DNA of 64,000 nucleotides from Elusimicrobiota bacterium. GTDB taxonomy: Bacteria > Elusimicrobiota > Endomicrobiia > CG1-02-37-114 > JAHJSO01. The stretch is from the NCBI GenBank assembly GCA_043826435.1, contig JBDRQF010000038.1, forward strand, positions 1-64,000. The letters are read 5' to 3'. Under the pieces are notes generated by a model, which was not told where the DNA came from, made no database searches, and saw only the letters and a program-made list of their open reading frames with translations. Shown here piece after piece: positions 22,984 through 52,034 of the stretch; positions within the stretch are counted from its first letter, which is position 1; each line of letters starts with the position of its first letter. The position numbers were made by a program, and so were the translations under genes.

Positions 22984-22991
22984 ACAGCCCT

Positions 22992-23146: not shown

Positions 23147-23190
23147 CCCTTGTCTTATTTGAAAAGCAGGAACTGGTATTAGACAGCCCA

Positions 23191-31804: not shown

Positions 31805-33361
31805 ATGAAAATCTCAAAAACTAAAATTCAAAAATTCCTGGCAGCGCTTCTGCTACTAATCTTAATGTTGCCGGTTGTGTCAGAGGCGGCATTTGAGCAG
31901 ATATCCGTAGGCGCCCGTCCCGCAGGGCTCGGCGGCGCCTACACCGCCCTTTCCGATGATGTGTATTCCGTTTACTACAACCCCGCGGGGCTTGCCCTTA
32001 TACCGCGGACAGAACTCACAACCCAGTATTCACAGTTATACATGGGTCTTTGGGATAACTCAGCGCTGGCATACTCTTTTGTCGGCATTGCCCAGCCGAT
32101 AAAATTCGCAAAGGACTTCGGGACTGTCGGCTTATCCTGGCTGCAGTTTAATTCAAGTAACCTGTACAAGGAAAATACCATGGCTCTGTCTTACGGGAAG
32201 AATTTCCGCATCGGTGGGAAGCCGCTCCTGGATTTGGGGATAAACCTGAAATCGCTTTCATTGGGTTACGGCGAACACGAATACACTTACGATGCCCTGA
32301 CGGACGACGGTGTTACCTGGTCATCCTCCCAGGGTGGCGGGACTAAACGGGCCGATTCGCTATTTGAAAAATACGGTTTTGACAAGTCCGCATTTACCAT
32401 TGACTTCGGCGCAAGATATTCAATTTTCAGAAATTATCGACTGGGACTTATGGTTTCAAACATAACGGAGCCGAATATCGCCCTTGACCCGTCGGTTGAC
32501 GCAAAACTCAGCAGGGCGATAAACTTAGGGATAGCCCACACAGGCCCGAACTACAATCTGGGGTTTGACTTTATGACGAAACAGTTTAATAAACTGACGG
32601 ATTCAAGGATTGCGGTTGCGGGTGAGCAGTACTTTCCGTTCGGGCTGGGTATAAGGGCAAGTTTGGTGACAGGCACGAGGAACCTGTTTAATTTCTCCTG
32701 CGGTTTCGGTTACAGGACCGACGTCCTGCAACTTGACTATGCGATTGAGTATCCCTTGACCGGAATAAAATCTACATTGGGCAGCCACAGGGTTTCGCTG
32801 ATAGTGAGGTTCGGACCTGTGATGAGGTTTGAAGCGCCGGGCACGGAACTCCAGGAGAAACTGTCCGAAACCGAGAGAAAACTTAAGTCAGCGAACGTTG
32901 AAATAGAAAAACTCAGGAAAGACCTGGATGAATTGCTGAAAAAGCCGTCGGCAGTCATTCCGAAGCCGCCTGAGAAACCGTCAGCCCCTGCGGTTGCCGC
33001 CCCTGCGAAACCGGAAGCAGACGACGTCCGGTCGCAATATAATAAGGACTATTCCGACTACAGGAAACAGGCGGAGAAAATGAAATTTGCCGACCGCATA
33101 GGAAAAATAAAATCAATCGTTGACGCATATCATGGAAAAACAGACGTATCTGAAGCAGAAAGGGAATACAAGATTCTTCTTGAAGAACAAGGGACGCAGA
33201 CAAAGATGTATAAGGACAGCATGATTTACTACAGAAAAATGACGCTCGGTGGGATTGACAACAAAACAAAGGTTGACCTTCTCAGGAGAATCATTACGAA
33301 ATACGAACCGTATGACATTGAACTAAAAGAGGCAAAGGAAGAACTTGAAAAACTAAAGTAA
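31805..33361 (+). CDS. PorV/PorQ (UPF0164)-like outer-membrane beta-barrel with C-terminal helical extension
   Basis: GARPAGLGGAYTALSDD...YYNPAGL plug motif, alternating beta strands, LDYA...HRVSL.VRF; then coiled coil and Pro/Ala linker. Confidence 0.8.
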   Translation: MKISKTKIQKFLAALLLLILMLPVVSEAAFEQISVGARPAGLGGAYTALSDDVYSVYYNPAGLALIPRTELTTQYSQLYMGLWDNSALAYSFVGIAQPIKFAKDFGTVGLSWLQFNSSNLYKENTMALSYGKNFRIGGKPLLDLGINLKSLSLGYGEHEYTYDALTDDGVTWSSSQGGGTKRADSLFEKYGFDKSAFTIDFGARYSIFRNYRLGLMVSNITEPNIALDPSVDAKLSRAINLGIAHTGPNYNLGFDFMTKQFNKLTDSRIAVAGEQYFPFGLGIRASLVTGTRNLFNFSCGFGYRTDVLQLDYAIEYPLTGIKSTLGSHRVSLIVRFGPVMRFEAPGTELQEKLSETERKLKSANVEIEKLRKDLDELLKKPSAVIPKPPEKPSAPAVAAPAKPEADDVRSQYNKDYSDYRKQAEKMKFADRIGKIKSIVDAYHGKTDVSEAEREYKILLEEQGTQTKMYKDSMIYYRKMTLGGIDNKTKVDLLRRIITKYEPYDIELKEAKEELEKLK

Positions 33362-35916: not shown

Positions 35917-35930
35917 AATACCAGTAAGTG

Positions 35931-36039
35931 TGTCATTGCGAGGCGAAGCCGAAGCAATCTTTCTTATGTCATTGCGAGGGGCGAAGTCCCGAAGCAATCC
36001 CTATTCGTTATGTCGTTGCGAGGCGAAGCCGAAGCAATC
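35931..36039 (+). repeat. Three tandem REP-like elements in the leader of the giant gene
   Basis: tgtc(a/g)ttgcgagg...gaagcaatc x3. Confidence 0.85.
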
Positions 36040-36113
36040 TCTCTTTATGGGTAGTTGGTGTTTGCCGGGATGTTGCCGGGTTTTGGGTCAATAAGTTTTT
36101 GGGTTACTTGAAA

Positions 36114-39100
36114 ATGGCTAAAAGGTTGGCGGTGTGTTTTTTCCTGTGTGTCGTTGTGGTTTTTCTTGCCGCAGGGGACAGCCATGCCCTGTGGTGGGTT
36201 GAGACGAATTCAACCGACTGGAACGACGGGTATTTTTACAGGTCAACCTCAACTGTGGACGACCTAAGAATCAGGGAATGGACCGACTGGCTCGGTTCTA
36301 CATGGACGCAGAGAATGGTTATTGTTATCAATAACGAGAATAACCCCAATACCCTTACCGACTATCAAATCACCCTTACAACAAATACAAAGATATTAGT
36401 TGACGCTAACCGCATGGACCCGCAGGGGAATTCCATAAGATTTACTGAATCAGACGGTGTGACAATCATTCCCCACTGGACCGAGTTCTGGAATATAACG
36501 ACCTCAACCGGCTCAAAATTCTGGGTGAGGGTTTCAACGATACCTGCCAACCTGTCGTCCAAGGAAATATATATGTATTATGGAAATGTTAGCACAAACA
36601 ATGTCTCAAACAGGGGCGCTGTTCTGGATCTCTATGAGGACTGGGAATCAGGAGAAATTGCTTATGGAACTAAATGGTTTGGTTCTGATAGTGAACCATT
36701 CAGAATAGCAATAGACACCTACACATCCAGTAGTGATTTTGATATGGTCTATAGAGGAACATATTCTGTTTGTAATGCAAATATTCTGGATACTCAAATA
36801 TCAGGTATATACACTAACCTGAATGTCTCAATGCCTGTAAAAATAAATTTCTGGTGGAGTAGATATGGAGAAAATCAAGAGGATTATCCTGAGTTTTTAA
36901 TAGATGGTATTTCACGGGGGCAACTTAAAGCTCAAATAATCCCACCCCCCTGGACTGCTGCCCAGTTCAATACAACATATAGCGGACTTATAACAATTAA
37001 GTGGCGCTACTACAAAAATCCAGGCACTACAGTACTGCCTGACAGGGGCTGGATAGACAATATAGTTGTGACAAAATACGCCGATCCTGAACCGACCGTT
37101 TTCGTTCCATATAGTGAAACAAAAACCAATTATTATTCCTCAGCAAAATATCACTCAGATGTTCTTGTTACCCAGGGGGAAAATTCTATTGTAAACTATA
37201 CCTCATGGAGCGTGTCAGGAATTGGCACGACAAAGATATATATGCGTGCCAGTGACACTAGTTTTCTTGTTACCGCTACCCTCCCATCATGGGCACAGGT
37301 GTACGATGAATCAAAACCTTCTGGAATACAGGGGAAATATATCCAGTACCAGGCAGAGTTCACTTCTGACGGTTCAACCGCACCTTCTCTTGGAGAAATA
37401 TCAATAGAATACAGGTCACCGCCGCCTCCCCCGAAAAATTTTATGGCTACAACAATCTCAACCTCCGTTATACTGTGGACATGGGAAGACCAGGCAAACG
37501 TTGTTATGTCAACAAGTACCTATGTGTACAGAATCTATATGAGCACACGCGCGCTAACTGCTGGTGGAGTTGGTGGATATGTGTCACCCGGCACTTCTTC
37601 ATTAGGCCTCTGGAAAGAACTTACAGGGGATACAACTTTCTGGTATGAGGATAACCTGATTGCCAATAAGGGTTATACAAGGTCGGTGGTTGCCGCAAAT
37701 GATGTGGGTGGGAATGTGGGTTCCCCTGCGATGGTTATGAAATACACCCGTGCTGTACCGCCGAATGTCAAATCAGAATATTTCAGATTTTTACCGATTT
37801 CGGGCTCTGAATATGTCCCCATATCCACAGGGGTATGGCACCAGCATAAATATTTTGGGGCAACTACAGGAAATTTTGTAAGTCAAATCAGCAGTGGTCC
37901 TGGAACAATTCAGTACTACAGGGTGGACTGGGCAACCGTGTCTTTCCGGGCATGGAATAACAATGAGACCCGTTGGGAGCCAGTGGTATCAACAGTTACC
38001 CATCCTGATTCCGGAGAAACAATAACAAAAAAACCCGAAGTGTTACAACAGGCAACATTGAACAGGAATTCATGGTATTTTCATGTTGCAAGTTATAATG
38101 GCGATAATGAATTGAGTACTTCAAGTGTTTTGGGACCTTTTTATTTCAATGGGTGCCCTTCCACAATAACTGATTTAGTGGCACTACCTTCAACCAGCCA
38201 GGAGGGCTGCGTCATTTTGAGATGGACAGCTCCCTATGCGGACTCCACTTTTAACAACATATCTTCCGGGAAATATTATCTGAAATACCGGGAAAACTTT
38301 AACATAAGCAATGATTCCCAGTTTGATGCTGCCGCTGGTTTGGTTAAGTTAACAACGACGGTTGCCAATCAGAGAGAGACCTATGTAATTAGCGGATTGA
38401 TTCCCGGCAATACTTACTGGTTTGCGATTAAAGCAGAAGATAGTGAAGGCAACAAGTCCGAATTGTTTGTAACCACTGACACCGCAATATTCTTCAATCG
38501 GAGAACGACCGCAGCCAAGATTGCCAAAATTGCTTTCAAGACATCTCCGCAAACGTATTCCGTGGGCGAAACGGCAGCACAGATTTTTGTTGAAACACAG
38601 GACTCGGCAAACAACCCTCTGGCAGTCGCTGAAGATACAAACATATATCTATATACTGATTCCTCTGAGGGAGAGTTTGCAACAACCCTGTCACCGACCC
38701 CTAACTGGACCGCTTCAGGCCAGGGGTTCGTAAAGGTTTTAAAAGGCACAAGCACTGCTGCCGGTTTCTGGTACCGCGATAAGAAAGCAGGCACACCAAG
38801 GATTACCTGTGATGAAGGCCCGGATAAACAATGGACAGCCGGCGAACAAATCCAGTCGGTTGTCCCCGGTTCTGCTGTGAAGTTTCGTATTGTGTATGAT
38901 ACCCCGAATAACTATGACTCAATAACAAAAGAACCATACCCGTCTAATTCTACCCTGTGGAGTGAAAAGACCGCATTCATTCAGGCGATTGACGGATACG
39001 GTAATATTTCGGATAGATACAGGGGAGGTATAATTTCAACCACAACGCCTGCCGAACAGGCAATGATACCCAGCAGCCATACCTTTACGGCTGTTGACGG

Positions 39101-42100
39101 CGGTTCAAAGACGGTTAAGATTCAGAACTTTTATATTGCAGGTCCTGCATGGACAAAGGTCCAGGAAGTTACTGACGAGAATTACAGGGATGTTTATTTT
39201 TATGATGAAAATACGGGCTGGGCAGTGGGAGACAAAGGGACGGTCAAAAAAACCGGCAACAAGGGCTCATCTTGGTATTCCCAGATTTACGGGGCATCAA
39301 CCTTAAACGGATTGAACGGGGTGTATTTTTTTGATATGTTCACCGGTTGGGCTGCCGGACAGGCAGGCCGTATAATAAAGACAGTTGACGGCGGCAATAC
39401 ATGGTCTGCACAAAACAGCGGTTCGTCGGCAATTCTTTACGGCGTGTATTTTGTAAATGCAAGCACGGGCTTTGCCTGTGGTGCTTCCGGGACGCTGTTA
39501 AAAACGTATGATGGAGGTAGCCCCTGGTTTTCAAGCAACACCGGGCTCCCTGTGAATGACCTGCACTCAGTTTATTTTATAGATGAAAATTCGGGCTGGG
39601 TCGCGGGTAAGAACGGCAGTGTTTACAGGACAACAGACAGCGGGGCGAACTGGGTATCCGTTTCCGTGCCCGGTTTAACCACCCAGAATTTATACAACAT
39701 AAGATTTTTAACCAGAAAAGCAGCGCCCGGCACGGGTTTTATAGTCGGTAACAGCAGTGAAATATACAGGACTACCGACGGTGGGACCAGCTGGACCGGA
39801 GTTAACAGCAGTACCTCCCAGATAATCTATGACATTGATTTTAATGACCCGAATACGGGGATAGCGGCTGGTTCAAACGGGGCAATAGTCAGGACGACAA
39901 ACGGCGGCACCAGTTGGTCCGTTATGTCTTCAACATACACAAAATCGTTTTACTGCGCGGATTTTTATAGCGCTGGTTTTGCTCTGGGTGCCGAAGGGAC
40001 AATAGTTAAGTCACCCGATCTCGGATTGACCTGGGCGCAGTGGCTGATGGAAGGAAAATCAGCCGTTCTTAACTGGAAAGGCACGGTTTTTGTCCCCGCC
40101 TCCGACTCATTCCCGCCCCCTGCAACACTCAGGATGGGAAGGGACAATCAGGCGATGTTCTTATTGGGCATGAGGATTCTCAACTACCAGACAGGTGATA
40201 ACGCCAAACTCACGACGGTTATATTTGACAAAACGGGGACAATAAATAACGCAGAAGCAAGTTCGGTAACGGTGAAATTATATCGTGATACCGGCGATAG
40301 GCAATTCAGTCCGACTGGCGATACATTTAAGGGGCAGACAATGTTTTCTCCCGGCACCGGACAGGCAACATTTTCAGGTCTCAGCGAGACCCTCAGCGGG
40401 ACAACCGTCTACTATTTTATTGTCCTTAACATCCCCGTTTTATCTGACATAATAAATGATACTATCGGTGTCCGGTTTCCGCAGAATGCATTTACAATTG
40501 AGGCAGGCGGCGTCCCGATGGCGAGGAACAATTTAGCATACAGCGTACCTCCTGCTACAATAGTCCCCAGTTCATGCACTGTTTCGTTTATGGACACTGA
40601 CATTGCACCAACAGAAACAACCCAGGGAACAAAGGACCTCCAGGTGTTCCGTTTTGATATGTCAACCGACAGGTCGGACAGCCCCTGGCGACGACTGACC
40701 GTAGAAAGGACAGGACAGAATACCGCGGATTCTGACATTGACAAGGTGAGTGTTTACGCCATATCCGTTGCACCTGAAAACTTTATAAGTTCAGGTGTTT
40801 TTAGCGCGGGTATTTGTAACATAAACTTTAGCAATGCGCCGCTGATAATCACTACAACACAGCAATTTTTTGTTACAATGGATATATCACCGAATGCAAG
40901 ATATTCAACCGATACGGACACTGCGACAGTCGGATTGAGACTTTTCTCAACGACAAACTATGTCAGGTTGGACACAGACGGGATGAACGGCATATCCCCT
41001 TCGGGAAAGGAAATTGCGTCAAAACTGGTAAAGATAAACGTTGCCTATGATATGGTGCTGATTTCCCCGGTATTCCTGACCGTTCCTGAAATTTACCAGG
41101 GCGAGGAAAAGGCATTTCTGGCGCTAAACATATCAATAGACGCCAACAATGCCACCTGGACACGGATGCGTCTGGGAAAAACAGGGACGGCCGGCGACAG
41201 CGACATAACCTCTGCATCACTCTACCGGGATTATGACGGTAACGGCAGTTTTAACGTGAACATAGACACTTATGTGGCGGGAAGCAATTTTTCAGGCGGA
41301 ATAAGCGACATTGTTTTTGCTACCCCTGAGACAATTGATAGGGTTCTGCCGCAGTACGCCACGTATTTTGTAACCCTTAAAATAGCCAAGACGTCAGGGA
41401 TTGACAAGACAGTGGCAATCAGGGTCGCCACACAGACATATGTTACAGTCGCCCTGCCTGACAGGGTTTCGTCCGCAAACTTTCCGATACAGTCCTCCAC
41501 CGCTACCATTAAAGACTATCCTGATACGGTTCAGGCAACGCTGACGGATATGGCACCCTATGACGCCAGGGTTGACGAAACAGTTCTTGCCGGGAAGATT
41601 CAATTAGTTACCTATGTGGATGCAACTTTCCAGAGTTTGCGCCTTGCGCACGAGGGTTCTGCCTCCACTGATGCGGTCAGGACAATAAGATTCTACAGCG
41701 ATTATAATTCAGACGGCGGTTTTTCTGCGTCGGACGACATGCTTATTGCTACCGCTTCATTCAACTCATCAGGAATAGGTATGCTGAATTTTGCAACTCC
41801 TCCCGTTATCCGTGACAGCACCCGGACGTTTTTTGTGGTCATTGAACTCAACCCGGACAAAGCGGAGCCGGGTAAAAATATTGGCTTTGGTGTTGATTAT
41901 ACCGGCTTTCAGTATAACCTGCCTAACATGGGCAATAACTTCGGTTATTTCAGGTGTTCCCTTGTGAAGTTACTGGATAGGAGAACGCCGACAGTCCCTG
42001 CTGTTGATTTGCAGTTTGACAACCCCACACCTGTCAGGATATCAGGCAGGGATGTATATTTTACGAATAAATCAGCCGAGATAAAGTTCAACTGGCGGTC

Positions 42101-42971
42101 GGAAGCCCTCAACGGCATAAAAGAATTAAAATATACGATCGCCTCATACCAGATTGTAACAGGCACGGAAACGCCTGATGTCCTGTCGTACTGGAATACA
42201 ACGGCCGACAGCAGCGTATCCTTTTCCGACATAAACTTGAAGCACAATACCGTGTATCACCTCTGGCTTAAGGTCTATAGCACCGACGATTTTGTCAGGA
42301 CAAAAAACATTGAGTTTAAGGTTGATACCACACCGCCGCCTGCACCCAATGCACCCGTACACACGGCCAGGAACGGTGTGTCAGCCGCACAGTCGCAGAA
42401 CTCATACTGGGTTTCATGGTCAGCCGTGTCCGACGCAGAGTCAGACATAATGTTCTACGAACTCCAGGAACGCTTGGACACTTCGCCCGTGTGGGTAAGC
42501 GTAAGCAGTACGATAGCACCGTCAATCACCGACTACCAGATAAAGAACAAGGAAGAAGGGAAGTTTTACTATTACCGTGTCAGGGCAAGGAACTATGCGG
42601 GGACATGGGGAAGTTTCTCTTCGGATTCAAAGGCGGCGTATTTATCATTGCCGTCAGGGCCGATAGAACAATTGGCGAACTATCCTAATCCGTTTGATTC
42701 CCGTTATCAGAAAACGACGATTACCTATATTCTAAAAGAGGACTCGGAAGTCACAGTGAGAATTTTTGACCTATTCGGCATTCCTGTTACCACAATGCAC
42801 TTTCTAAAAGGGCAGAGCCCCGGTGGGGTGCAGGGGGCGAACAACATTTTATGGGATGCTACCAACGACCAGGGGCAGAAGATTGTCCAGGGGATGTATA
42901 TAATGTCCGTTGAGGTAAAATCAGACAGTTCAACCATTCGCAAGAACTGGAAAATAGGAGTGATACATTGA
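36114..42971 (+). CDS. Giant (2285 aa) secreted surface protein: DUF2341-like, FN3, Ycf48/BNR propeller, Ig repeats, FlgD-Ig / type-A T9SS-like C-terminal domain
   Basis: Signal peptide from ATG 36114; LTDYQI..SIRFT..HWTE..WVRV..IYMYYGN; repeated GWAVG..G....T.DGG.TW; NYPNPF...TITY.L...IFDL.G...WD..ND.G..GMY. Confidence 0.85.
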   Translation: MAKRLAVCFFLCVVVVFLAAGDSHALWWVETNSTDWNDGYFYRSTSTVDDLRIREWTDWLGSTWTQRMVIVINNENNPNTLTDYQITLTTNTKILVDANRMDPQGNSIRFTESDGVTIIPHWTEFWNITTSTGSKFWVRVSTIPANLSSKEIYMYYGNVSTNNVSNRGAVLDLYEDWESGEIAYGTKWFGSDSEPFRIAIDTYTSSSDFDMVYRGTYSVCNANILDTQISGIYTNLNVSMPVKINFWWSRYGENQEDYPEFLIDGISRGQLKAQIIPPPWTAAQFNTTYSGLITIKWRYYKNPGTTVLPDRGWIDNIVVTKYADPEPTVFVPYSETKTNYYSSAKYHSDVLVTQGENSIVNYTSWSVSGIGTTKIYMRASDTSFLVTATLPSWAQVYDESKPSGIQGKYIQYQAEFTSDGSTAPSLGEISIEYRSPPPPPKNFMATTISTSVILWTWEDQANVVMSTSTYVYRIYMSTRALTAGGVGGYVSPGTSSLGLWKELTGDTTFWYEDNLIANKGYTRSVVAANDVGGNVGSPAMVMKYTRAVPPNVKSEYFRFLPISGSEYVPISTGVWHQHKYFGATTGNFVSQISSGPGTIQYYRVDWATVSFRAWNNNETRWEPVVSTVTHPDSGETITKKPEVLQQATLNRNSWYFHVASYNGDNELSTSSVLGPFYFNGCPSTITDLVALPSTSQEGCVILRWTAPYADSTFNNISSGKYYLKYRENFNISNDSQFDAAAGLVKLTTTVANQRETYVISGLIPGNTYWFAIKAEDSEGNKSELFVTTDTAIFFNRRTTAAKIAKIAFKTSPQTYSVGETAAQIFVETQDSANNPLAVAEDTNIYLYTDSSEGEFATTLSPTPNWTASGQGFVKVLKGTSTAAGFWYRDKKAGTPRITCDEGPDKQWTAGEQIQSVVPGSAVKFRIVYDTPNNYDSITKEPYPSNSTLWSEKTAFIQAIDGYGNISDRYRGGIISTTTPAEQAMIPSSHTFTAVDGGSKTVKIQNFYIAGPAWTKVQEVTDENYRDVYFYDENTGWAVGDKGTVKKTGNKGSSWYSQIYGASTLNGLNGVYFFDMFTGWAAGQAGRIIKTVDGGNTWSAQNSGSSAILYGVYFVNASTGFACGASGTLLKTYDGGSPWFSSNTGLPVNDLHSVYFIDENSGWVAGKNGSVYRTTDSGANWVSVSVPGLTTQNLYNIRFLTRKAAPGTGFIVGNSSEIYRTTDGGTSWTGVNSSTSQIIYDIDFNDPNTGIAAGSNGAIVRTTNGGTSWSVMSSTYTKSFYCADFYSAGFALGAEGTIVKSPDLGLTWAQWLMEGKSAVLNWKGTVFVPASDSFPPPATLRMGRDNQAMFLLGMRILNYQTGDNAKLTTVIFDKTGTINNAEASSVTVKLYRDTGDRQFSPTGDTFKGQTMFSPGTGQATFSGLSETLSGTTVYYFIVLNIPVLSDIINDTIGVRFPQNAFTIEAGGVPMARNNLAYSVPPATIVPSSCTVSFMDTDIAPTETTQGTKDLQVFRFDMSTDRSDSPWRRLTVERTGQNTADSDIDKVSVYAISVAPENFISSGVFSAGICNINFSNAPLIITTTQQFFVTMDISPNARYSTDTDTATVGLRLFSTTNYVRLDTDGMNGISPSGKEIASKLVKINVAYDMVLISPVFLTVPEIYQGEEKAFLALNISIDANNATWTRMRLGKTGTAGDSDITSASLYRDYDGNGSFNVNIDTYVAGSNFSGGISDIVFATPETIDRVLPQYATYFVTLKIAKTSGIDKTVAIRVATQTYVTVALPDRVSSANFPIQSSTATIKDYPDTVQATLTDMAPYDARVDETVLAGKIQLVTYVDATFQSLRLAHEGSASTDAVRTIRFYSDYNSDGGFSASDDMLIATASFNSSGIGMLNFATPPVIRDSTRTFFVVIELNPDKAEPGKNIGFGVDYTGFQYNLPNMGNNFGYFRCSLVKLLDRRTPTVPAVDLQFDNPTPVRISGRDVYFTNKSAEIKFNWRSEALNGIKELKYTIASYQIVTGTETPDVLSYWNTTADSSVSFSDINLKHNTVYHLWLKVYSTDDFVRTKNIEFKVDTTPPPAPNAPVHTARNGVSAAQSQNSYWVSWSAVSDAESDIMFYELQERLDTSPVWVSVSSTIAPSITDYQIKNKEEGKFYYYRVRARNYAGTWGSFSSDSKAAYLSLPSGPIEQLANYPNPFDSRYQKTTITYILKEDSEVTVRIFDLFGIPVTTMHFLKGQSPGGVQGANNILWDATNDQGQKIVQGMYIMSVEVKSDSSTIRKNWKIGVIH

Positions 42972-42992: not shown

Positions 42993-43196
42993 TGTCATTG
43001 CGAGGAGCGTTAGCGACGAGGCAATCTCATAAGACAAAGGGGATTGCTTCGGCTGTGCCTCGCAATGACAGGGTGGGCAAGGGGATTGCTTCGGCTGTGC
43101 CTCGCAATGACAGGGTGGGCAAGGGGATTGCTTCGGCTGCGCCTCGCAATGACAGGGTGGGCAAGGGGATTGCTTCGGCTGCGCCTCGCAATGACA
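42993..43196. repeat. REP-like cluster, one forward and four tandem inverted copies (42-bp period)
   Basis: gattgcttcggctg(t/c)gcctcgcaatgaca x4 separated by gggtgggcaaggg. Confidence 0.92.
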
Positions 43197-43198
43197 AT

Positions 43199-44806
43199 AT
43201 GAACAAGGTGCTTGCCGCCCTGTTGTCTTTCCCCGTGTGCCTTATGATAGCAGCCGGTTGTTTCGCCGCAGGCACCGACCCGTCTGCATTCCTGTCTTAC
43301 GGGGCTGGCGGCAGGGCTTTCGGCCTCGGGGGCGCCTATGCAGGGATATCCGAAGACGCAACCGCCACTTATTACAACCCGGCTGCTCTCGGGGCGCTCC
43401 AGTATAAGCAACTGCTAACGTCCTACTCAACCCTGTGGGAAAACACGGATTACAGTTATGCCGGCTACACCCACCCTCTGGTGGATGCGGGAGCGTTGGG
43501 TTTTAACATTGTCCGGCTTTATTCAGGCGGGGCTGAACGCAGGGATATTTATAACAAGCCACAGGGGAATTTTGACCACTCGCGCACAGGCATAACGGTG
43601 GGTTACGGTAAGGGCATATACAAAAACATTTATGCGGGGCTTAACGGCAAATTCATTAATTCAGTCCTGGACACGAACACGGCGAATTACTTTTCCGTTG
43701 ACGTCGCGGGTTATTACCGTATAAACCACGTGCTGAGCATAGGCGCCAACCTCCAGAACGTAATTCCCATAACGATGAGCAGTACCGACGACCGCCTGCC
43801 GCTGAATTTCAAGATGGGAGCGGGTTACAAGGTATTCGGGGACAAAGTGTTGTTTGCGGTTGACCTGAACAAGAACTCGGGACGCAGTTCCAGTATCATT
43901 GATTTTTATTCATTGGGGCTGGAGAGCAGACCTTTTAATTTCTTGAGTTTCCGCCTTGGCAAAAACGTCCATGAGGTTACTGCCGGTTTCGGTTTGAAAC
44001 AATCCATAACAGGCATTATATTTTCTCTTGACTATGCAGTCGCAATGCATGATTATTTAGGGGTTTCGCACAGGGCGTCTCTTGATTTCAGGTTCGGCAG
44101 GAGTATAGAAGAGATAAAACTTGCCCGGAAAACACAGGAGGACTCATCCGTCAGTGAACTGAAACCCGAAGAGATAATGATTAAAGAACAGAAAGAAGAC
44201 AAATTCAGGGCACTGTATCAGGATGCGGTTGAAAGTTATAAACAGGGACTGTTTTCAATCGCACTTGAGAAATTCAATGCGGCAAAGGAAATTTTACCCG
44301 AAGACACGCTTGTGCCGGTCTATATTGAGCGGCTTGGTACAATCGTCGGGGTGATAACTCAGCACATAAGTTCCGGGAAGACAGGCGATCTTCTCAGGAG
44401 GGGGGTTGCATACTTCGTTGAAGGTGATGGTGAAAGCGCCGTCAAGACGATTGCTTATCTTCTCTCCATTGAGCCGGAGAATTTTACGGTTGAACGGCTT
44501 CTGAACCGCCTGGAGGAGAAAACAGGGATTAAGGCGGAGAAATCAACCCCGATGACAAACCTGTCTGTTGTGGAACAGAAATTATATGAGTGCTTAATAC
44601 ATTTCAAGAAGAGGGATTTCTGGAAAGCGATATCCCTGTGTGAACAGATACTTGTTCTTGAACCCGACAATGTGGCCGCTTACAAGCGAATGGGAAGCGC
44701 GTTTTATGCTCTCGGGGAAAAAGAAAAGGCAAAAGAGGTCTGGCAGAAAGCCCTTTTAATACAGCCCGACCCGAAGTTGAAGGACTTTATTGAAAAAATG
44801 AAATAA
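43199..44806 (+). CDS. PorV/PorQ-like outer-membrane barrel with C-terminal TPRs
   Basis: AFLSYGAGGRAFGLGGAY.G..EDA.A.YYNPA, LDYA...HRASL.FRF; TPR helices (AYKRMGSAFYALG..A...WQKAL). Confidence 0.82.
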   Translation: MNKVLAALLSFPVCLMIAAGCFAAGTDPSAFLSYGAGGRAFGLGGAYAGISEDATATYYNPAALGALQYKQLLTSYSTLWENTDYSYAGYTHPLVDAGALGFNIVRLYSGGAERRDIYNKPQGNFDHSRTGITVGYGKGIYKNIYAGLNGKFINSVLDTNTANYFSVDVAGYYRINHVLSIGANLQNVIPITMSSTDDRLPLNFKMGAGYKVFGDKVLFAVDLNKNSGRSSSIIDFYSLGLESRPFNFLSFRLGKNVHEVTAGFGLKQSITGIIFSLDYAVAMHDYLGVSHRASLDFRFGRSIEEIKLARKTQEDSSVSELKPEEIMIKEQKEDKFRALYQDAVESYKQGLFSIALEKFNAAKEILPEDTLVPVYIERLGTIVGVITQHISSGKTGDLLRRGVAYFVEGDGESAVKTIAYLLSIEPENFTVERLLNRLEEKTGIKAEKSTPMTNLSVVEQKLYECLIHFKKRDFWKAISLCEQILVLEPDNVAAYKRMGSAFYALGEKEKAKEVWQKALLIQPDPKLKDFIEKMK

Positions 44807-44824: not shown

Positions 44825-46306
44825 ATGGGTGTTATATTGCTCCTGTGCGTGTTGATTGGTTTTTGTCCCGAAACAATGGCCCAGTCCATGATGGAACAAA
44901 AACTGGCCCTTGAGAGCTCAATCCAGGAGAGGACGGAGAGAATCGTAGAGAAAATAATCGGTTCCAGAGAGACAGTGGTTCTTGTGAATGTTGAACTGGC
45001 GACTGAGAAATCCAAAACCGAGAGGCCGCTTTACCCCGGTATGACCGGCTCACAGGAGGAATATCTGCCGGGGATAACATATTCCTATGTTCCCCTTGAC
45101 CTTGAGGCGGCAGGGTATTCAAATGTAACAATCAAAAAAATAAACATATCTATAACTGTTGACACAAAAATTACCACGCCTGTGGTTGACAGGATTAAGA
45201 AAGAAATTACATCGCTTATGGGTCTCAATACCCTCAGGGGTGACGTTGTGGACGTTCAGAAGATTGTGTTTTCGTCAAAAAAGATTAACTGGGGGGAGCA
45301 ACTGCTGAACTTGTTTTCAAATTTATACTGGATTGCTGTTCTCGGACTTATCGCACTGTTTCTTTTCGGGCCGCTCAGGAACTTCTTTAAGACAATCGTA
45401 AAGGCGATGGAAATCAGAATAGATGCGGATACAAAAATAAGGAATTATGACGATGCGTCGCGTGCGGGTATCGGCGGAGGCAATCCTTTTATGCCGTCAG
45501 GCCCCATAGAACTTACGCTGGACAGAAAAAGACCTCAACTAAAGAAAGGGGAAGAAGAACAAATGAAGATGAAAAAGTTCGGGTTCATTGACGCCAACAA
45601 CCTTAAGAATCTTATTTTCCTGCTGAAAGAAGAAAAACCGGAGAAGATTGCAATACTCACGAGTTATCTGTCTTCCGAGTTCACGTCGCAGGTTATTAAT
45701 TCTCTCCCGCCGAAGAAACAGGCGCAGGTTGCTCTCACGCTTACGATGCCCAGAATAATTGACCCGCAGGAGGTTGACGAACTGGAGAAGGAAATGAAGC
45801 AAAAGATTGACTACCTCGTCGGCGGGGACGATTATTTTATGAATTTGCTTGACCAGGTTGATATTGAAACGCAGGAAAATATTTTGCAGAATCTGGAAGG
45901 GACAAACCCCGCGCTGGCGACAAAGATAAGACAGGTGCTTTTCTTCTTTAACGACATCGTAATCCTTGACAAGCAGGTCCTGCAGAAGGTTATAAGGGAG
46001 ATCCAGAAGCAGGGGCTGTCCCTTGCGCTTGCGCTCAAAGGCGCAGCGGATGGGGTAAAATCAAAGGTTATGGAAACATTGACCGAAGGAGCCAGGGCGA
46101 TGCTTGCCGAGCAGATTGACCTCCTGGGAGACGTAACGGAAAAGAGGGCTCAGGATGAACAGAAGCAGATTGCAATAATTATCAAGCAGTTAGAAAGGGC
46201 GGGGGAGATTATTATTGACAGGGGCAAAAAGTTTAATATCATTGATGAGGACAAATCAACCGCAGTCGTACCGGAAGAGGTAAACGGAGAAGAAAGGAGT
46301 ATATAA
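44825..46306 (+). CDS. FliF(RBM3)-like ring domain fused to FliG middle/C-terminal domains
   Basis: Signal peptide; IKKINISITVD...MGLNTLRGDVVDV (FliF C-terminal pattern); one TM; EKPEKIAILTSYL, GG, FFFNDI, LALALKGA, GEIII (FliG pattern). Confidence 0.8.
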   Translation: MGVILLLCVLIGFCPETMAQSMMEQKLALESSIQERTERIVEKIIGSRETVVLVNVELATEKSKTERPLYPGMTGSQEEYLPGITYSYVPLDLEAAGYSNVTIKKINISITVDTKITTPVVDRIKKEITSLMGLNTLRGDVVDVQKIVFSSKKINWGEQLLNLFSNLYWIAVLGLIALFLFGPLRNFFKTIVKAMEIRIDADTKIRNYDDASRAGIGGGNPFMPSGPIELTLDRKRPQLKKGEEEQMKMKKFGFIDANNLKNLIFLLKEEKPEKIAILTSYLSSEFTSQVINSLPPKKQAQVALTLTMPRIIDPQEVDELEKEMKQKIDYLVGGDDYFMNLLDQVDIETQENILQNLEGTNPALATKIRQVLFFFNDIVILDKQVLQKVIREIQKQGLSLALALKGAADGVKSKVMETLTEGARAMLAEQIDLLGDVTEKRAQDEQKQIAIIIKQLERAGEIIIDRGKKFNIIDEDKSTAVVPEEVNGEERSI

Positions 46307-46309
46307 CTT

Positions 46310-47089
46310 ATGGACTTTATGACAATTACGGGGTTGTTGGTTGGCGGGCTTGCAGTGTATTATGCCCTGGCAGTGGGGGGTATAGGGGATCTTATATTTA
46401 ATCTACCTGCTGCAGTTCTGGTATTCGGTGGAACACTTGGAGCGACCATGGTTACATATCCATGGTCAATATTTAGCAGGGTGCCAAAAGCGGTAGGACT
46501 GATGCTATTCCCCCCAAAGCGACTTTCGCCGGAACACTATATTACACTTCTGGTGCAACTTTCAGAGAGGGCAAAAAAATCAGGTATTGACAGTTTACAG
46601 GATGACATACCGAAAATACAGGACCCATTTTTAGTGGATGGATTACAGATGCTTCTGGACGGCCTGGATGCAAATATGGTCAGGGAGAACCTGGACAAAG
46701 AAATCGTTTTTTTGAGACGCAGGCATTCCCAGCTTACCTCTGTTTTCAGAAGTATGGGCACCTATGCCCCAATATTCGGTCTTCTCGGAACCCTTATAGG
46801 TGTTGTTCAGGTTTTGCAGAACCTTACTGACCCCACGTCCATTGGTGCGGCTATGGCTGTGGCGGTTGTCACAACTTTCTATGGGATATTCAGCACAAAT
46901 TTTTTCTATCTGCCGACTGCAGGAAAACTGGATTCTTTAACCGAGCAGGAGGTCCTCCTGAAAGAGGTTGCTATTGAGGGGATCTTAGCCATACAAAAAG
47001 GGGATATCCCGATGATTGTTTCCCGCAAACTGCATGCCTATCTGGCGTACAAAATAAGACAATTCCACCGAAAGAAAGAGACTAAATAA
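46310..47089 (+). CDS. motA: MotA/PomA-family stator subunit
   Basis: VFGGTLGA, DPFL..GLQML.DG, APIFGLLGTLIG, AVVTTFYG, P...KL, EGILAIQ.G. Confidence 0.93.
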   Translation: MDFMTITGLLVGGLAVYYALAVGGIGDLIFNLPAAVLVFGGTLGATMVTYPWSIFSRVPKAVGLMLFPPKRLSPEHYITLLVQLSERAKKSGIDSLQDDIPKIQDPFLVDGLQMLLDGLDANMVRENLDKEIVFLRRRHSQLTSVFRSMGTYAPIFGLLGTLIGVVQVLQNLTDPTSIGAAMAVAVVTTFYGIFSTNFFYLPTAGKLDSLTEQEVLLKEVAIEGILAIQKGDIPMIVSRKLHAYLAYKIRQFHRKKETK

Positions 47090-47095
47090 ATTAAA

Positions 47096-47758
47096 ATGCC
47101 GCCAGAAACGAAACAAAAAGAACAGGAAAAAATTAGCAGGGAACAAAAATCAAACGAAAAACAGATATGGCTTACTGTTTACTCTGATATGACGACGAAC
47201 CTCGCCTTATTTTTTCTTATATTGTTTTCCCTTACCCGTCTCAGCGCTCCCCAGCGGGAAAAACTTTATGAATCGCTGAAAAAACAGTATAAAGAAAAAA
47301 CAAAGCAGGAAGAGGTGCAGGTCGTAAAAGAAGAGGAGCAGAAGAAAAAGGATGTGGATGAGTTAAAAAAATTAGCGTATGTGGAAGAAACACAACAACA
47401 GATAAAGATAACCCTGCCAAGCCCCGTGCTTTTTGATTTAAACAAGGTGGAACTCAAAACACAGGCGATGAATATACTTTCGCAGATAGCGACGGTTCTG
47501 AAGGGCTCTGATTATCCGATTATTGTGGAGGGACATACTGATAACCTCCCGGTTTATGGCGGGAGATACCCTTCCAACTGGCACCTCTCTTCTGCAAGGG
47601 CTTTCTCTGTGATAGAATATTTTGTTAATGAGGGGAAGATTAACCCTAAAAGGTTTTCGGCGATGGGTCATGCTGAATACAGGCCCGTTGTTCCAAATGA
47701 TACAGAAGAAAACCGTTCCATAAACAGGAGAATTGAAATTATAGTGGTAAAGATATGA
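47096..47758 (+). CDS. motB: MotB-family stator subunit 1 (Asp retained)
   Basis: WLTVYSDMTT TM motif; OmpA-like domain EGHTD, NWHLSSARA, NRRIEI. Confidence 0.92.
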   Translation: MPPETKQKEQEKISREQKSNEKQIWLTVYSDMTTNLALFFLILFSLTRLSAPQREKLYESLKKQYKEKTKQEEVQVVKEEEQKKKDVDELKKLAYVEETQQQIKITLPSPVLFDLNKVELKTQAMNILSQIATVLKGSDYPIIVEGHTDNLPVYGGRYPSNWHLSSARAFSVIEYFVNEGKINPKRFSAMGHAEYRPVVPNDTEENRSINRRIEIIVVKI

Positions 47759-48447
47759 GTGCTGAAAATAACAAAAAAAGTTATTCGGAAGAAAATATAG
47801 AAATCGGGGAAACAATTGACCCCGGTTCTGCGTGGCTGATACCTTATGGGAACATGATGACCATCCTGATGGTATTCTTTTTAATCCTTTATGTATTTTC
47901 TTACCAGGCGGACAGCGCTACCTATGAGAGGGTCGTGACAAAGATTCAAAAGGAATTTACGACCAAGGGGGAAAAGGCGGAAAAAATAGCCAGGAAGGCG
48001 CAGGAAGCGGAACAGGTTGAAAAGATGGCGGAGTATTTTGCTGAAAAGGGTTTTGACAAATTCGCCAAAGTTGAGATTAATGCCGAGAGGGTCAGGGTTA
48101 CCCTTTCAAATCCTGTGCTTTTTTCACTCGGTGAGGCGGTTCTTAAACCAGAGGCGAAACTCCTTTTAAAGCCCATATCCGAACTCACCAAGATTCTCCC
48201 TTCAAAAATAATAATTGAAGGACATACTGACAACCTCCCGATTTATGGCGGTAAATACAAATCAAACTGGGAACTCTCGGCGGACAGGGCGATAAGCGTG
48301 GTCAGATATATGGTTAATGAAGAAGATGTCGCTCCTGAAAGGTTTGCTGTGGCGGGATATGGAGAGTTTCGTCCGGTAGCGCCAAACGATACCGAGGACA
48401 ACAGGGGGAAAAACAGAAGGATAGAGATAGTACTTTTGCGGTCATAA
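47755..48447 (+). CDS. motB: MotB-family stator subunit 2 (conserved Asp replaced by Asn)
   Basis: AWLIPYGNMMT TM motif; EGHTD, NWELSADRA, NRRIEI. Confidence 0.9.
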   Translation: MSAENNKKSYSEENIEIGETIDPGSAWLIPYGNMMTILMVFFLILYVFSYQADSATYERVVTKIQKEFTTKGEKAEKIARKAQEAEQVEKMAEYFAEKGFDKFAKVEINAERVRVTLSNPVLFSLGEAVLKPEAKLLLKPISELTKILPSKIIIEGHTDNLPIYGGKYKSNWELSADRAISVVRYMVNEEDVAPERFAVAGYGEFRPVAPNDTEDNRGKNRRIEIVLLRS

Positions 48448-48555: not shown

Positions 48556-50370
48556 ATGGCCGAAAATACGTTGTCTGAAGACAGGGTTTTAAGAGAACTT
48601 CTGCGAACGGAAAGCGATATGGCAAAAGAGACAATCCGGCTTTTACAATCCCGTTACAATTCAGAAAAGCAGCAGTGGGACAAGGTATTTAAAGGAAAAG
48701 AGTCCGACTTAGTCGCTCTAAGGGGCAAACTGGTTGAAACCGAACAACGGCTTAAACAACTGAGGGATGAATCGTCCTGGCAGAGCCACCGGGAGATGGA
48801 ACACCTGAAACTGTCCGTTGAAGAAATAAAAATAAGGAAAGAGAAGGAAATAGAAAAATGGCAGGTCATAGAAAATAAGGTCAGGACGTACAGGCAGATT
48901 GCCGACGAGACCCAGTCCAGGCTACTTGAGGAACAGATGAAACTGGCGGAAACGAGAGAAAAGCGCCTGCAGGAAGAGCAGGACTTCCGCCAGCAGATTG
49001 AAAAATACAACGGACAGGTGGTTGAACTTCAGAACACACTGCTGAAAAAGGAACAGGACTGGACAATAGACAGGGCGAGATACGAGAAGGATGTTGAACG
49101 TCTCTCCGAACAACTTAAAACATTTGAACTGGTTATCCATGACGATAGGACAAGCAGGGATAAAACGATCGGGGATAAGGACGAACACATAATCAGGTTC
49201 CAGAAGGCGCTTCAGGATTTAAGCGTTGAACTGGTTCAGGAGAGACAGCGGAACGAAACACTCCTGCAGGAAGTGGCAGAGCGGGATAAAAGGATAACCG
49301 GTCTGGAAAGCAGGAATAATGAAATTATAACCCGGATTGAACAGGAACGCAGGGAATGGCAGGAGGCATGGCAGAAGCAGCAAAAGGAGTGGGAAGAGCA
49401 TAAGAAAGAAATCATAGTCAAAGAGGATGTCATACAGACGCAGACCGAAGAACAGGTCTCCAAGGTTATGTCAATGCTTGCCGCCCTTGAGATGGAACTG
49501 GTTCAGGAGAGGCATCGCAGGAAAGAGGTTGAGGACAATAATACTGAAAAGATAAAGCAGGTTGAAACGCTCCGGCAGGAAGTGATGAGAATAACCCACA
49601 GGGCTGAAGAGGAAAGAAAGAAACTCGAAGGTTCCTTGTTCGTCCAGGAGGTTGCGTTTGAGTCGCAGCGGACTGCTATCCTTGAAAAATACCAGCAACT
49701 GCAGGTAGAAATTATATCACTGAAAGGCGCCCTTTCCGAAGAGCATCAGGTTCTGGCGCTGGAAAAGGAAAAGACGAAGGGAATTGAAACGGCGTTCCAG
49801 CAAGCCAGAGACAATAACACCCGAATGTTAAACACGGTTGAACAGGACAAGGCACACTGGCAGAAAGTCCTTCTTGAAGAGCAGATCCGTTCCGAGCAGC
49901 GGCTGAAAGAGTATGTATCATTGACCGAACAGGTAAAGAAATCAAGGGAAACGGAAGTCCGAAAACTGCAGGACGAAATAACCTTACTTTCGGCGGAGAT
50001 GGACGAACTCAGGTTGATTTACATATCAACAAAGGTTGAGAATGACCAGAGGAAGTCAAGGATTGCAGAACTTGAGGCGGAGTTTCAGAAGGTTGTCCAG
50101 CAGTGGGAGAGGGAAAGGGCGGAGTGGGAGGACTTACTCGTTAACGAGCAGCAACTCTGGGAGCGGAGAAAAAACGAGGCGATACTCAGGGAGCAGCGGC
50201 TCGCAGGAGAAAGGGAAAAAGAAATAAAACAACTCATGTCACAACTGGATGACGCAAGAGTGAAATTTATATCCACCCGTCAGGAACTGCACGAGAAAGA
50301 AAATAAAATATACGAACTGCAATTGCAGATAAACGGACTTGCGTCCTCTCCGCTTGCAAAACCCACTTGA
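48556..50370 (+). CDS. Long coiled-coil protein (604 aa, E/Q/K/R-rich with recurrent Trp)
   Basis: Heptad-like charged composition; no signal peptide or TM; GGAGG RBS. Confidence 0.85.
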   Translation: MAENTLSEDRVLRELLRTESDMAKETIRLLQSRYNSEKQQWDKVFKGKESDLVALRGKLVETEQRLKQLRDESSWQSHREMEHLKLSVEEIKIRKEKEIEKWQVIENKVRTYRQIADETQSRLLEEQMKLAETREKRLQEEQDFRQQIEKYNGQVVELQNTLLKKEQDWTIDRARYEKDVERLSEQLKTFELVIHDDRTSRDKTIGDKDEHIIRFQKALQDLSVELVQERQRNETLLQEVAERDKRITGLESRNNEIITRIEQERREWQEAWQKQQKEWEEHKKEIIVKEDVIQTQTEEQVSKVMSMLAALEMELVQERHRRKEVEDNNTEKIKQVETLRQEVMRITHRAEEERKKLEGSLFVQEVAFESQRTAILEKYQQLQVEIISLKGALSEEHQVLALEKEKTKGIETAFQQARDNNTRMLNTVEQDKAHWQKVLLEEQIRSEQRLKEYVSLTEQVKKSRETEVRKLQDEITLLSAEMDELRLIYISTKVENDQRKSRIAELEAEFQKVVQQWERERAEWEDLLVNEQQLWERRKNEAILREQRLAGEREKEIKQLMSQLDDARVKFISTRQELHEKENKIYELQLQINGLASSPLAKPT

Positions 50371-50411: not shown

Positions 50412-52034
50412 ATGGAAAACGAAGAATTAATTAATAAAACGAAGATATTGTTGGTTGATGATGATTCGGCAGTTGCAGGTATGTGTAAAAGGGTTCTTGA
50501 GAGTAATAATTATTATGTAGAGACCGTCTCAAGCGGCAGGGACGCCCTTGCGATACTGAATAATAAATTTTTTAATATGGTTTTAGCCGATATAAAACTG
50601 CCGGGCGACATGGACGGTATCGCACTTTTGAAGGAAATAAGACATAAATACCCGTCAGTTATTGTTATAATAATGACCGCTTACGGCACCATTGAAACAG
50701 CCATTACGACGATGAAAGAAGGCGCTTGCGATTATCTGATAAAACCGTTTGATATACACATTCTGTTAAATACTGTCCGGCGCTCTCTTGAGTTCTGTCG
50801 TTTAAAATCTGAGTCGGAGGTTCTTCTAAATGCCATATCTTTATTTGAATTTGTATCAGAGACATCTTCAGACAAAACGGGGGAGGAATTGCTCTCGTTA
50901 CTTCTGGGGAATGCCTTAAAGATTATGAGGGCCAATTCGGGCTCGGTTTTTGTTTACAATAAAATAACAGAAAAGTTGGAGATGATGACTTGTATCGGAA
51001 TGGAGGAAAAGATTAAAAAGGAAGTGAGTATAGGCGAAGGCATAGTCGGTTATGTTGCCAGAAGCAGGAAGACACTGATTTTACACAACGGACTGCACAA
51101 ATATCCACTGTTTAAAACATACCCACCAAGGAAAGAAATTGTCAGTTCAATTATCAATCCAATTCTGTTAAAAGGAATGCTTCTGGGTGTCCTGTGTCTG
51201 AATAAGACAGAATACTTGCCTGTACTTTTTTCAGATGAGGACAAAAGGATAATTAAAATGTTTTCAAACTACGCCGCACTTGTAATCGGGTCTTTTCAGG
51301 CGTCTGCTGAATTGCTGTTTCTGAACAGGTTAAAATCAGAATTTCTTTCAAACGTAAGCCATGAATTGAGAACCCCGCTTATGGCTATTTCAGGCGCCGC
51401 TGAACTCCTTGATGACCCTACGCCGAGTAAAAACAAAAAACAGATGTTAGGACTGATTCAGAGAAATGTTCAAAGGATGGATAAATTAGTGGCTGACCTC
51501 CTGGATTTTTCAAAAATGGAGTCGGGTAAACTGATTTACAATTTCAGAAAAACCCGGATATCAAATGTGTTAAATAAACTAATCATGGATTTTGAGAATG
51601 AATTCAGGAAAAAAGAGATAAAATTTATCAGACGGATACAGGAAGGGATTCCTCCAATAGTAATTGATTCTGAACGAATGTATCAGGCGGTTTCAAATTT
51701 ATTGACTAACACACTTAAGTTTACTCCGCTGGGGGGGGAGGTGGAACTCAGATGTTCCAAAAACAAGACCTGCGTTATGGTATCCGTAAAAGACACAGGG
51801 ATAGGCATTAGCAAAAAATATCACGACAAAATATACTCAAATTTTTTCCAGGTGGACGGTTCCAGCACGAGGAACGAAAGGGGTTTGGGCCTGGGTCTTG
51901 CTATTGCGAATTCAATCGTCTCGGCACACAAAGGGAAGATTAAACTCAAATCAGAGCCGGGTAAAGGCAGTACATTCACGATATATCTGCCATGTTCCAA
52001 CGCCATGGAGTCATTGCGAAGGACGAAGTCCTGA
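50412..52034 (+). CDS. Cytoplasmic hybrid kinase REC-GAF-HisKA-HATPase
   Basis: LVDDD/DIKLPG receiver; GEGIVG GAF; SHELRTPL; N, G1 and G2 boxes. Confidence 0.92.
   Translation: MENEELINKTKILLVDDDSAVAGMCKRVLESNNYYVETVSSGRDALAILNNKFFNMVLADIKLPGDMDGIALLKEIRHKYPSVIVIIMTAYGTIETAITTMKEGACDYLIKPFDIHILLNTVRRSLEFCRLKSESEVLLNAISLFEFVSETSSDKTGEELLSLLLGNALKIMRANSGSVFVYNKITEKLEMMTCIGMEEKIKKEVSIGEGIVGYVARSRKTLILHNGLHKYPLFKTYPPRKEIVSSIINPILLKGMLLGVLCLNKTEYLPVLFSDEDKRIIKMFSNYAALVIGSFQASAELLFLNRLKSEFLSNVSHELRTPLMAISGAAELLDDPTPSKNKKQMLGLIQRNVQRMDKLVADLLDFSKMESGKLIYNFRKTRISNVLNKLIMDFENEFRKKEIKFIRRIQEGIPPIVIDSERMYQAVSNLLTNTLKFTPLGGEVELRCSKNKTCVMVSVKDTGIGISKKYHDKIYSNFFQVDGSSTRNERGLGLGLAIANSIVSAHKGKIKLKSEPGKGSTFTIYLPCSNAMESLRRTKS

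Follow-up and report, generated by a model that had tools for sequence, protein, structure and literature searches.

We have identified a conserved, Asp-less MotB paralogue in a non-flagellar rotor-stator cassette of a groundwater Elusimicrobiota bacterium (GenBank assembly GCA_043826435.1). The cassette lies in the first 64,000 nucleotides of contig JBDRQF010000038.1 (hereafter, the window, meaning this whole stretch) and includes a gene for a FliF-FliG fusion protein, a single motA and two overlapping motB genes. The first of these, motB, encodes the channel aspartate of the transmembrane (TM) helix, and the second, termed motB', encodes asparagine at the same position. The Asn-type motB' is under purifying selection, the two genes form an old and co-inherited paralogous pair, and loss of the Asp is restricted to the second copy. 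We hypothesize, with a probability of roughly one in two, that both proteins join MotA in a single unit, MotA5-MotB-MotB', which would have one ion site.

The MotB pair in the window

The two genes are as follows.

47096-47758, + strand: motB, 220 aa; MotB paralogue that keeps the channel Asp31, with MotB_plug and OmpA-like domains
47755-48447, + strand: motB', 230 aa; MotB paralogue whose channel position is Asn33 rather than Asp, with a MotB_plug TM region and an OmpA-like peptidoglycan-binding domain

The original prediction, made from the DNA letters alone, described tandem MotB paralogues of which the second has Asn at the Asp position, and our analysis confirmed this arrangement. The TM helix of MotB reads WLTVYSDMTT, with Asp31 encoded by gat at 47186-47188, and that of MotB' reads WLIPYGNMMT, with Asn33 encoded by aac at 47851-47853. 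In an alignment with the solved MotB chains from C. sporogenes (6ysf) and B. subtilis (6ysl), Asn33 falls on their channel Asp. MotB' thus lacks the invariant TM ion-binding Asp (E. coli D32, PomB D24), which is present in MotB as Asp31. At the same column, Asn is read in the PomB chains of PDB entries 8zyz and 8zz0, which we take to be the engineered D24N form. The predicted overlap of the two genes was also found, with the stop codon of motB and the start codon of motB' sharing 4 nt (ATGA, 47755-47758). A gap of 6 nt separates motB from the single motA that directly precedes it; the statement that there is one motA therefore holds for the operon but not for the genome, which has three motA genes.

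Both proteins have the domains of a stator B subunit. Scores for PF13677 (MotB_plug) were 38.3 bits for MotB and 41.7 bits for MotB' (cut-off 24), and those for PF00691 (OmpA) were 69.0 and 70.3 bits, respectively (cut-off 27.2), in keeping with the intact OmpA-like domains that had been predicted for both. The peptidoglycan motifs TDN...SNWELS..RA...NRR are present in the MotB and MotB' groups alike. The two proteins share 38% identity over 224 columns (E 3e-55). Neither reaches an equivalog cut-off among the NCBIfam MotB, MotD and MotS models, the best scores being 154.3 bits for MotB (MotD, cut-off 283) and 154.5 bits for MotB' (MotB, cut-off 301).

Several lines of evidence bear on the reality of the Asn codon. 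Contigs of three groundwater DNA runs (X2, X3 and X4), which belong to two studies other than the possible source, show no difference at 47851-47853 or at 47186-47188. No RNA run is listed among those that contain the stretch, and the one RNA run compared (X6) yielded no contig on it, an outcome without bearing on expression. A paralogous and diverged cassette on another contig of the same genome (C33) contains a fusion gene with FliG, motA, a motB reading WLTVMSDLMT and a motB' reading WMLPYGNLMM, the last of which is cut by the contig end. Among the best 120 of 7906 MotB' homologues at E <= 1e-10, the residue at this position is Asn in 47, Asp in 63, Thr in 4 and Ser in 3, with 3 cut short, and Asn is found in 16 of the 16 closest. 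The original prediction would have been undone by orthologues that keep the Asp; instead, Asn is conserved both in orthologues and in the paralogous cassette.

Asp-less forms were also sought more widely. When an Asp-less profile was compared with 1.84 billion cluster representatives, the best 150 included 131 MotB-sized proteins, of which 105 have Asp, 15 Asn, 2 Thr and 2 Ser, and 7 could not be aligned; the Asp-less members of this set make up 19 clusters at 50% identity. A search of genome contigs with an Asp-less alignment (A1) returned mostly generic MotBs of other phyla in the 80 loci retained from 601 matches, with Asp in 81 MotB-like open reading frames (ORFs), Gly in 2, and Asn, Thr and Val in 1 each, plus 7 that could not be aligned. 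Two loci from Desulfobacteraceae metagenome-assembled genomes (L041 and L054) have motA followed by two MotB-like genes, the first with Gly (WQIVYTGF and WAVIYAGF) and the second with Asp. These loci extend the Asp-less MotB partner to another phylum, where it is encoded by the first of the two genes and not by the second.

Distribution and selection across Elusimicrobiota

Eighty loci around fusion-gene matches and the two cassettes of this genome gave 82 cassettes, which were typed by the residue at the Asp column as read by hmmalign to a MotB profile.

Fusion, MotA, MotB (Asp), MotB' (Asn): 18 cassettes, and 1 more (L129) in which the start of the first MotB was miscalled
Fusion, MotA, MotB (Asp), MotB' (Ser): 2 cassettes
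Fusion, MotA, MotB (Asp), MotB' (Asp): 12 cassettes
Fusion, MotA, single MotB (Asp): 18 cassettes
Fusion and MotA only: 6 cassettes
Fusion gene with no stator gene adjoining: 24 cassettes
Fusion, MotA, cut MotB: 1 cassette

Of the first MotBs in the 33 tandem cassettes, 32 could be read, and every one has Asp. Among the second copies, 19 have Asn, 12 Asp and 2 Ser; loss of the Asp is thus restricted to the second copy. A Thr variant of the second MotB occurs in locus L013. The site in the second MotB tolerates Asp, Asn, Ser or Thr, and that in the first tolerates Asp only. The pair is tightly packed, and its two genes overlap in 8 of 32 cassettes. An apparent 567-aa "fused" MotB in L140 proved to consist of two genes with a run of N between them, an Asp/Asp pair that had been counted as single.

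The single-MotB cassettes mostly go with a longer, 650-690-aa type of fusion protein, and a few are cut by contig ends. In cassettes of this fusion type (L173-L195), the single MotB has Glu four residues past the channel Asp (YADLMTE), where the first MotB of tandem cassettes has an invariant Asn (D-x-x-T-N). Compared with the solved MotB and PomB chains aligned here, it is unusual for the residue one turn of the helix away from the Asp to be polar or acidic. The 24 of 82 loci that lack an adjoining stator gene (L160-L167, L169, L172 and others) have fusion genes of ~600-660 aa with a PorV-like gene directly upstream, and no motA or motB within ~4 kb downstream of the fusion gene; their stators, if any, are elsewhere.

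In a tree of 80 MotBs rooted on the MotB of contig C29, the 32 first-position copies form one group (SH-aLRT 86), and the second-position copies fall apart from it. Since the subtrees of the first- and second-position copies mirror each other, the duplication is old and the pair has been co-inherited. A second tree, built from MotA and the fusion protein of the 33 cassettes, is independent of the MotBs; 25 of its 30 inner branches are starred, and its root is not known. On this tree, the Asp or Asp-less state of MotB' needs five changes, all of which are forced by starred branches.

A dN/dS check on the second motB had been proposed along with the original prediction. Ratios were calculated by the Nei-Gojobori method and were 0.099, 0.107, 0.073 and 0.075 in four unsaturated pairs of Asn-type motB' orthologues, values that come from closer pairs in other clades, dS being undefined (saturated) for the nearest pairs of the window (WIN/L119 and L119/L120). 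These values resemble the ranges for motB (0.045-0.09) and motA (0.02-0.14). The Asn-type motB' is therefore under purifying selection.

The TM/plug segment is the best-conserved part of MotB'. In the Asn/Ser group, the W, Y, N, M, T, L, M and F of the TM helix are each conserved in at least 90%, and W27, Y31, T36, M39 and F42 are invariant or nearly so in the MotB' alignment (A4). The motif of this helix, W-x2-P-Y-G-N-x-M-T, is distinct from that of MotB, W-x3-Y-S-D-x2-T-N-L, which has an invariant Asn four residues past the Asp; W25, D31, N35 and L36 are invariant in the MotB alignment (A3). The residues that replace Asp in MotB' (Asn, Ser and Thr) are all small and polar. The conserved Asn, the paralogous cassette and the purifying selection together support the proposal of a conserved and functional Asp-less partner of MotB.

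MotA, the fusion protein and the proposed stator unit

Two genes lie directly upstream of the pair.

46310-47089, + strand: motA, 259 aa; flagellar-type (PomA/MotP-like) stator A subunit
44825-46306, + strand: FliF-FliG fusion, 493 aa; signal/TM helix, periplasmic RBM3-like domain, TM helix, and cytoplasmic FliG-M and FliG-C

MotA matches PF01618 (MotA_ExbB, 84.4 bits) and resembles solved MotA/PomA chains over its full length (9lu9, E 9.1e-50; 8bri, E 3.2e-44; residues 1-246/256). At the rotor-facing charged pair (R90/E98 in E. coli MotA, R88/E96 in PomA), the position of PomA R88 is occupied by K89 and is Lys or Arg in 51 of 51 cassette MotAs, and that of PomA E96 is occupied by Q97 (Gln in 41, Glu in 7, Ser in 2 and Leu in 1 of 51). 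Thr161, Thr188 and Thr189 stand at the positions of PomA T158, T185 and T186, residues that we take, together with PomB D24, to form the Na+ site; Na+ coupling of the MotA unit is no more than a lead. At residue 188, Thr occurs in 19 of the 21 Asp-less cassettes, and Ala or Gly in 11 of the 12 Asp/Asp cassettes. Across five phylogenetically independent contrasts, this residue shifts in the same way as the MotB' state in 3-4, in the opposite way in 0 and is unchanged in 1-2. The direction of these changes suggests that the MotB' helix sits in the MotA channel.

The fusion protein matches FliG_C (PF01706, 83.4 bits), FliG_M (PF14841, 46.7 bits) and YscJ_FliF_C (26.0 bits), and aligns to the FliG-MC of T. 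maritima (1lkv, E 1.4e-33). In an AF2 model (mean pLDDT 77.3), the periplasmic part forms a single RBM3-like domain of the alpha-beta-beta-alpha-beta type, whose insert (residues 64-98) is disordered. Foldseek matched the cytoplasmic part to FliG-MC (1lkv, E 1.4e-11) and the periplasmic part to the FliF RBM3/collar (6sd1_A, E 4.8e-3, TM-score 0.55 on the target). This single RBM3-like domain stands in place of the full RBM1-RBM2-RBM3 set of FliF, and covalent attachment to the TM helix and RBM3-like domain takes over from the FliF-binding N domain of FliG. The FliM-binding EHPQR motif is degenerate, with only E270 and P272 conserved. Where T. maritima FliG has the Arg of its torque helix, the aligned residue is a conserved Gly, and positions 429, 430 and 432 stay acidic or amide. 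Since Lys or Arg is kept in MotA at the R88 position, Glu has given way to Gln at the E96 position, and the FliG part has Gly for Arg and acidic or amide residues at 429, 430 and 432, one classic MotA-FliG charge pair seems to be kept and the other lost on both partners (pairing as quoted in the accessible part of PMC12505986).

The original prediction had assumed a flagellar stator, and this was not borne out. Searches of the assembly, which is 96.68% complete (1.83 Mb in 61 contigs), gave no match to FHIPEP/FlhA, Flagellin_N, FliMN_C or Flg_bb_rod. All four families were matched in 4 of the 14 control genomes that were named, the flagellated E. coli, B. subtilis, C. vibrioides and T. maritima. 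FliG_C matches occur only in the two cassettes. A sample of 401 genomes from the phylum yielded the fusion protein in 175 (92 of 123 genera) and FlhA in 9. A third stator locus of the genome, on contig C29 (890-2785, locus L002), consists of an FlbD-like small ORF, a 280-aa motA and one motB, which has Asp (WFSSYGDLVT); no FliG gene adjoins it.

From these sequences we infer a heterodimer with one-site ion coupling, rotation of a fusion ring, and what this rotation would drive. In the proposed arrangement, motB and motB' would encode two non-identical B subunits of one flagellar-type stator, assembled as MotA5-MotB1-MotB'1. MotB alone would supply the ionizable Asp, and MotB' would place a permanently neutral polar Asn on the second axle helix; both subunits would be anchored to peptidoglycan through their OmpA-like domains. 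The target of the unit would be a ring formed by the product of the adjoining upstream gene, the membrane-anchored FliF(RBM3)-FliG fusion. This ring would be part of a flagellum-free envelope machine with genetic links to a PorV-like outer-membrane protein and to giant surface proteins (described below).

We favor the MotA5-MotB-MotB' unit because the pair is old, co-inherited and tightly packed, the loss of Asp is strictly one-sided, the TM helix of MotB' is constrained with its OmpA motifs intact, the changes at MotA residue 188 tend to run with the MotB' state, and MotA appears well matched to the FliG part. Paralogues of a duplicated homodimer also tend to cross-assemble, which we count in its favor. 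The original interpretation is thus partly supported: its conserved Asp-less partner stands, the heterodimer with one working channel that it put forward fits the evidence, and its flagellar setting does not stand.

Several points weigh against such a unit. E. coli MotB D32N was reportedly found by Zhou and colleagues in 1998 to be non-functional and dominant-negative, and by this precedent an axle with one Asp and one Asn should poison a canonical stator. The covariation at MotA residue 188 is not significant (sign test p 0.125; 0.05 is unreachable with five contrasts) and has exceptions, namely Asp with Thr in L159 and Asn with Ala in L145 and L152. The five state changes may include Asn-to-Asp reversals, which take one transition, and the site could be loosely constrained. 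In addition, the MotB1 and MotB2 of A. aeolicus each work separately with MotA as chimeras, according to the accessible part of PMC4525482.

This behavior of the A. aeolicus proteins, together with the full stator-B architecture of both MotB and MotB', would suit an alternative in which two homodimeric units share MotA. MotA5MotB2 would then be the working ion-driven stator, and MotA5MotB'2, which has no ionizable site, would be an inert brake, placeholder or regulator at rotor sites or at the cell wall; a brake or regulatory subunit was also named in the original prediction. Stators with Asp changed to Asn are non-conducting in model systems, and the PomB chains of 8zyz and 8zz0 read Asn. We regard this alternative as unlikely, since it leaves unexplained the near-lossless co-inheritance of the two genes (33 tandem cassettes and L140), the retention of both copies in Asp/Asp lineages, and a MotA channel residue that tends to change with the MotB' state.

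It is quite improbable that MotB' has left the stator, retains its TM helix as an anchor and serves as a peptidoglycan-bound scaffold, in the manner of MotY- or Pal-like OmpA-domain proteins. Its intact OmpA-like domain, the missing catalytic Asp and the presence of other envelope parts in the machine (the PorV-like barrel with its TPR tail) would be compatible with such a role, but the TM/plug segment is conserved beyond the needs of a plain anchor, the protein is still above the MotB_plug cut-off, and the replacements are limited to Asn, Ser and Thr. Sequencing error, strain-specific mutation and a decaying pseudogene are rejected as explanations of the Asn with hardly any residual doubt, given a codon unchanged in contigs of three runs from two other studies, an Asn common to the paralogous cassette and the 16 nearest homologues, a dN/dS of ~0.1, and the 19 Asp-less clusters.

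In current models of 5:2 motors (MotAB, ExbBD, TolQR, GldLM and ZorAB), the ion is bound and released by the two aspartates of the axle in turn. An Asp/Asn unit conserved in nature would test directly whether both ion sites are needed, and would also allow tests of the number of ions per turn and of how direction is set. Natural controls are built in, since the pair is Asp/Asp, Asp/Asn, Asp/Ser or Asp/Thr depending on the sister lineage, and MotA residue 188 is a candidate compensating residue. The cassette also provides a handle on an uncharacterized flagellar-type rotor-stator that is common in Elusimicrobiota.

The genetic link to PorV-like barrels and giant proteins with tails like C-terminal domains (CTDs) suggests that the machine may handle surface adhesins. 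A fuller picture, possible but doubtful, is a natural 5:1:1 rotary unit that would run on a single carboxylate, with a neutral Asn, Ser or Thr and a compensating MotA Thr, and that would turn a minimal FliF(RBM3)-FliG ring coupled to PorV-type barrels and giant CTD-tailed surface proteins rather than to a flagellum. If this were true, the 5:1:1 unit would be a new envelope-spanning rotary machine that moves or exports adhesins in a largely flagellum-less phylum.

Neighboring genes and known systems

Three further genes flank the cassette.

43199-44806, + strand: PorV/PorQ-family outer-membrane barrel (NCBIfam NF033709) with a C-terminal TPR tail (TPR domains)
35928-42971, + strand: giant 2347-aa surface-type protein (BNR/Ycf48-like, DUF2341 and fn3), with a tail like the CTDs of type IX secretion system (T9SS) cargo
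48556-50370, + strand: 604-aa coiled-coil-like protein with no family match, kept in 2 of 81 other loci

The PorV-like ORF is listed from 42968, and its likely start is Met78 at 43199, ahead of a signal-peptide-like stretch. Its protein scores 113.7 bits against NF033709 (cut-off 90) and does not reach the equivalogs PorV (44.6 bits, cut-off 250) and PorQ (61 bits, cut-off 220). A PorV-like ORF is present in 66 of the 82 loci and lies directly upstream of the fusion gene in 44. The tail of the giant protein matches positions 996-1089 of the PorU profile (E 4.9e-10). Since it is kept in so few of the other loci, the 604-aa downstream protein is probably not core to the cassette. A response-regulator/GAF/histidine-kinase hybrid at 50412-52034 may regulate the system, because homologues lie downstream of the tandem cassettes L124, L127, L128 and L129.

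Barrels of this kind are numerous in the 1.83-Mb genome, with more than 20 paralogues, often beside ORFs of very large size (the longest has 4662 aa) whose tails are CTD-like. Within the window, one at 31805-33361 follows a 1029-aa fn3 protein with a weak match to a T9SS type-B sorting domain. On contig C12, a second pair of giant-protein and PorV-TPR genes is followed, at the contig end (13752-14057), by the cut N-terminus of a third FliF-like protein; as the assembly has only two FliG_C matches, it may be missing a third cassette. A 42-bp tandem repeat (43037-43196, 3.8 copies, 99% matches) separates the giant gene from the likely PorV-like start. Read in frame, it gives the GKGIASA(V/A)PRNDRV repeats that head the listed ORF, and similar repeats occur at 22990-23151 and on contigs C53, C30 and C23. 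Family searches of the genome found neither GldL nor GldM, which is weak evidence because the control genomes gave no match either. The SprA profile scores 70.2 bits on a 1744-aa ORF, far under the cut-off of 200, and this ORF is thus distantly SprA-like.

Free-living Elusimicrobiota that lack flagellar structural genes have been described, in the accessible part of a 2022 preprint (10.1101/2022.07.08.499144), as carrying many motAB, flbD and fliG homologues whose role is unclear; the same portion makes no mention of the fusion protein or of an Asp-less MotB. Our literature search found no description of an Asp-less MotB partner, of a natural FliF-FliG fusion in Elusimicrobiota, or of PorV/T9SS in Elusimicrobia. 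In the accessible part of PMC12505986, the strings "Elusimicrob" and "aspartate" do not occur.

The gene order resembles that of Aquifex aeolicus, in which one motA is likewise followed by two motB genes in an operon (Takekawa et al. 2015, PMC4525482, as available in part). There, the N-terminal and TM regions of MotB1 and MotB2 are 97% identical, with one difference (Gly20/Ser20), and the periplasmic parts differ. The Aquifex system is flagellar, and both of its MotBs have the same channel Asp site, whereas the TM helices described here are of two conserved types, one of them Asp-less.

The AglR-AglQ-AglS gliding motor of Myxococcus xanthus also combines one A-type with two B-type subunits in a non-flagellar, surface-motility context (PMC9389320). 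According to the available parts of that source, a review of 5:2 motors, AglQ and AglS both keep the mid-membrane Asp, and whether they form hetero- or homodimers is unsettled. AglR groups with the non-flagellar TolQ/ExbB-like transporters (PMC12505986, in the part available), whereas the MotA of the window is of the flagellar type. The gliding motor involves no FliG partner.

Type IX secretion and gliding (PorV shuttle, CTD cargo and the GldLM 5:2 motor) resemble the present system in that a PorV/PorQ barrel and CTD-like giants lie beside a 5:2-type motor. They differ in the motor itself, which here consists of MotAB and a FliG-bearing ring, and the SprA match is far below its cut-off.

The canonical MotA5MotB2 and PomA5PomB2 stators (6ysf, 6ysl, 8bri, 6ykm and 9lu9) share with the window a PomA/MotP-like MotA over its full length (E 3e-44 to 9e-50), MotB_plug and OmpA-like domains in both B proteins, and the channel Asp of MotB. 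In contrast to these stators, the window has two different B subunits with the second Asp-less, a presumed rotor in the form of a FliF(RBM3)-FliG fusion, Gln at the position of PomA E96, no NCBIfam equivalog cut-off reached, and a genome without matches to the flagellar families. The engineered MotB D32N of E. coli and PomB D24N of V. alginolyticus have Asn at exactly the aligned position. These are laboratory loss-of-function mutants with the change in both B chains, whereas the Asn of the window occurs naturally, is conserved and has beside it a partner gene that keeps the Asp.

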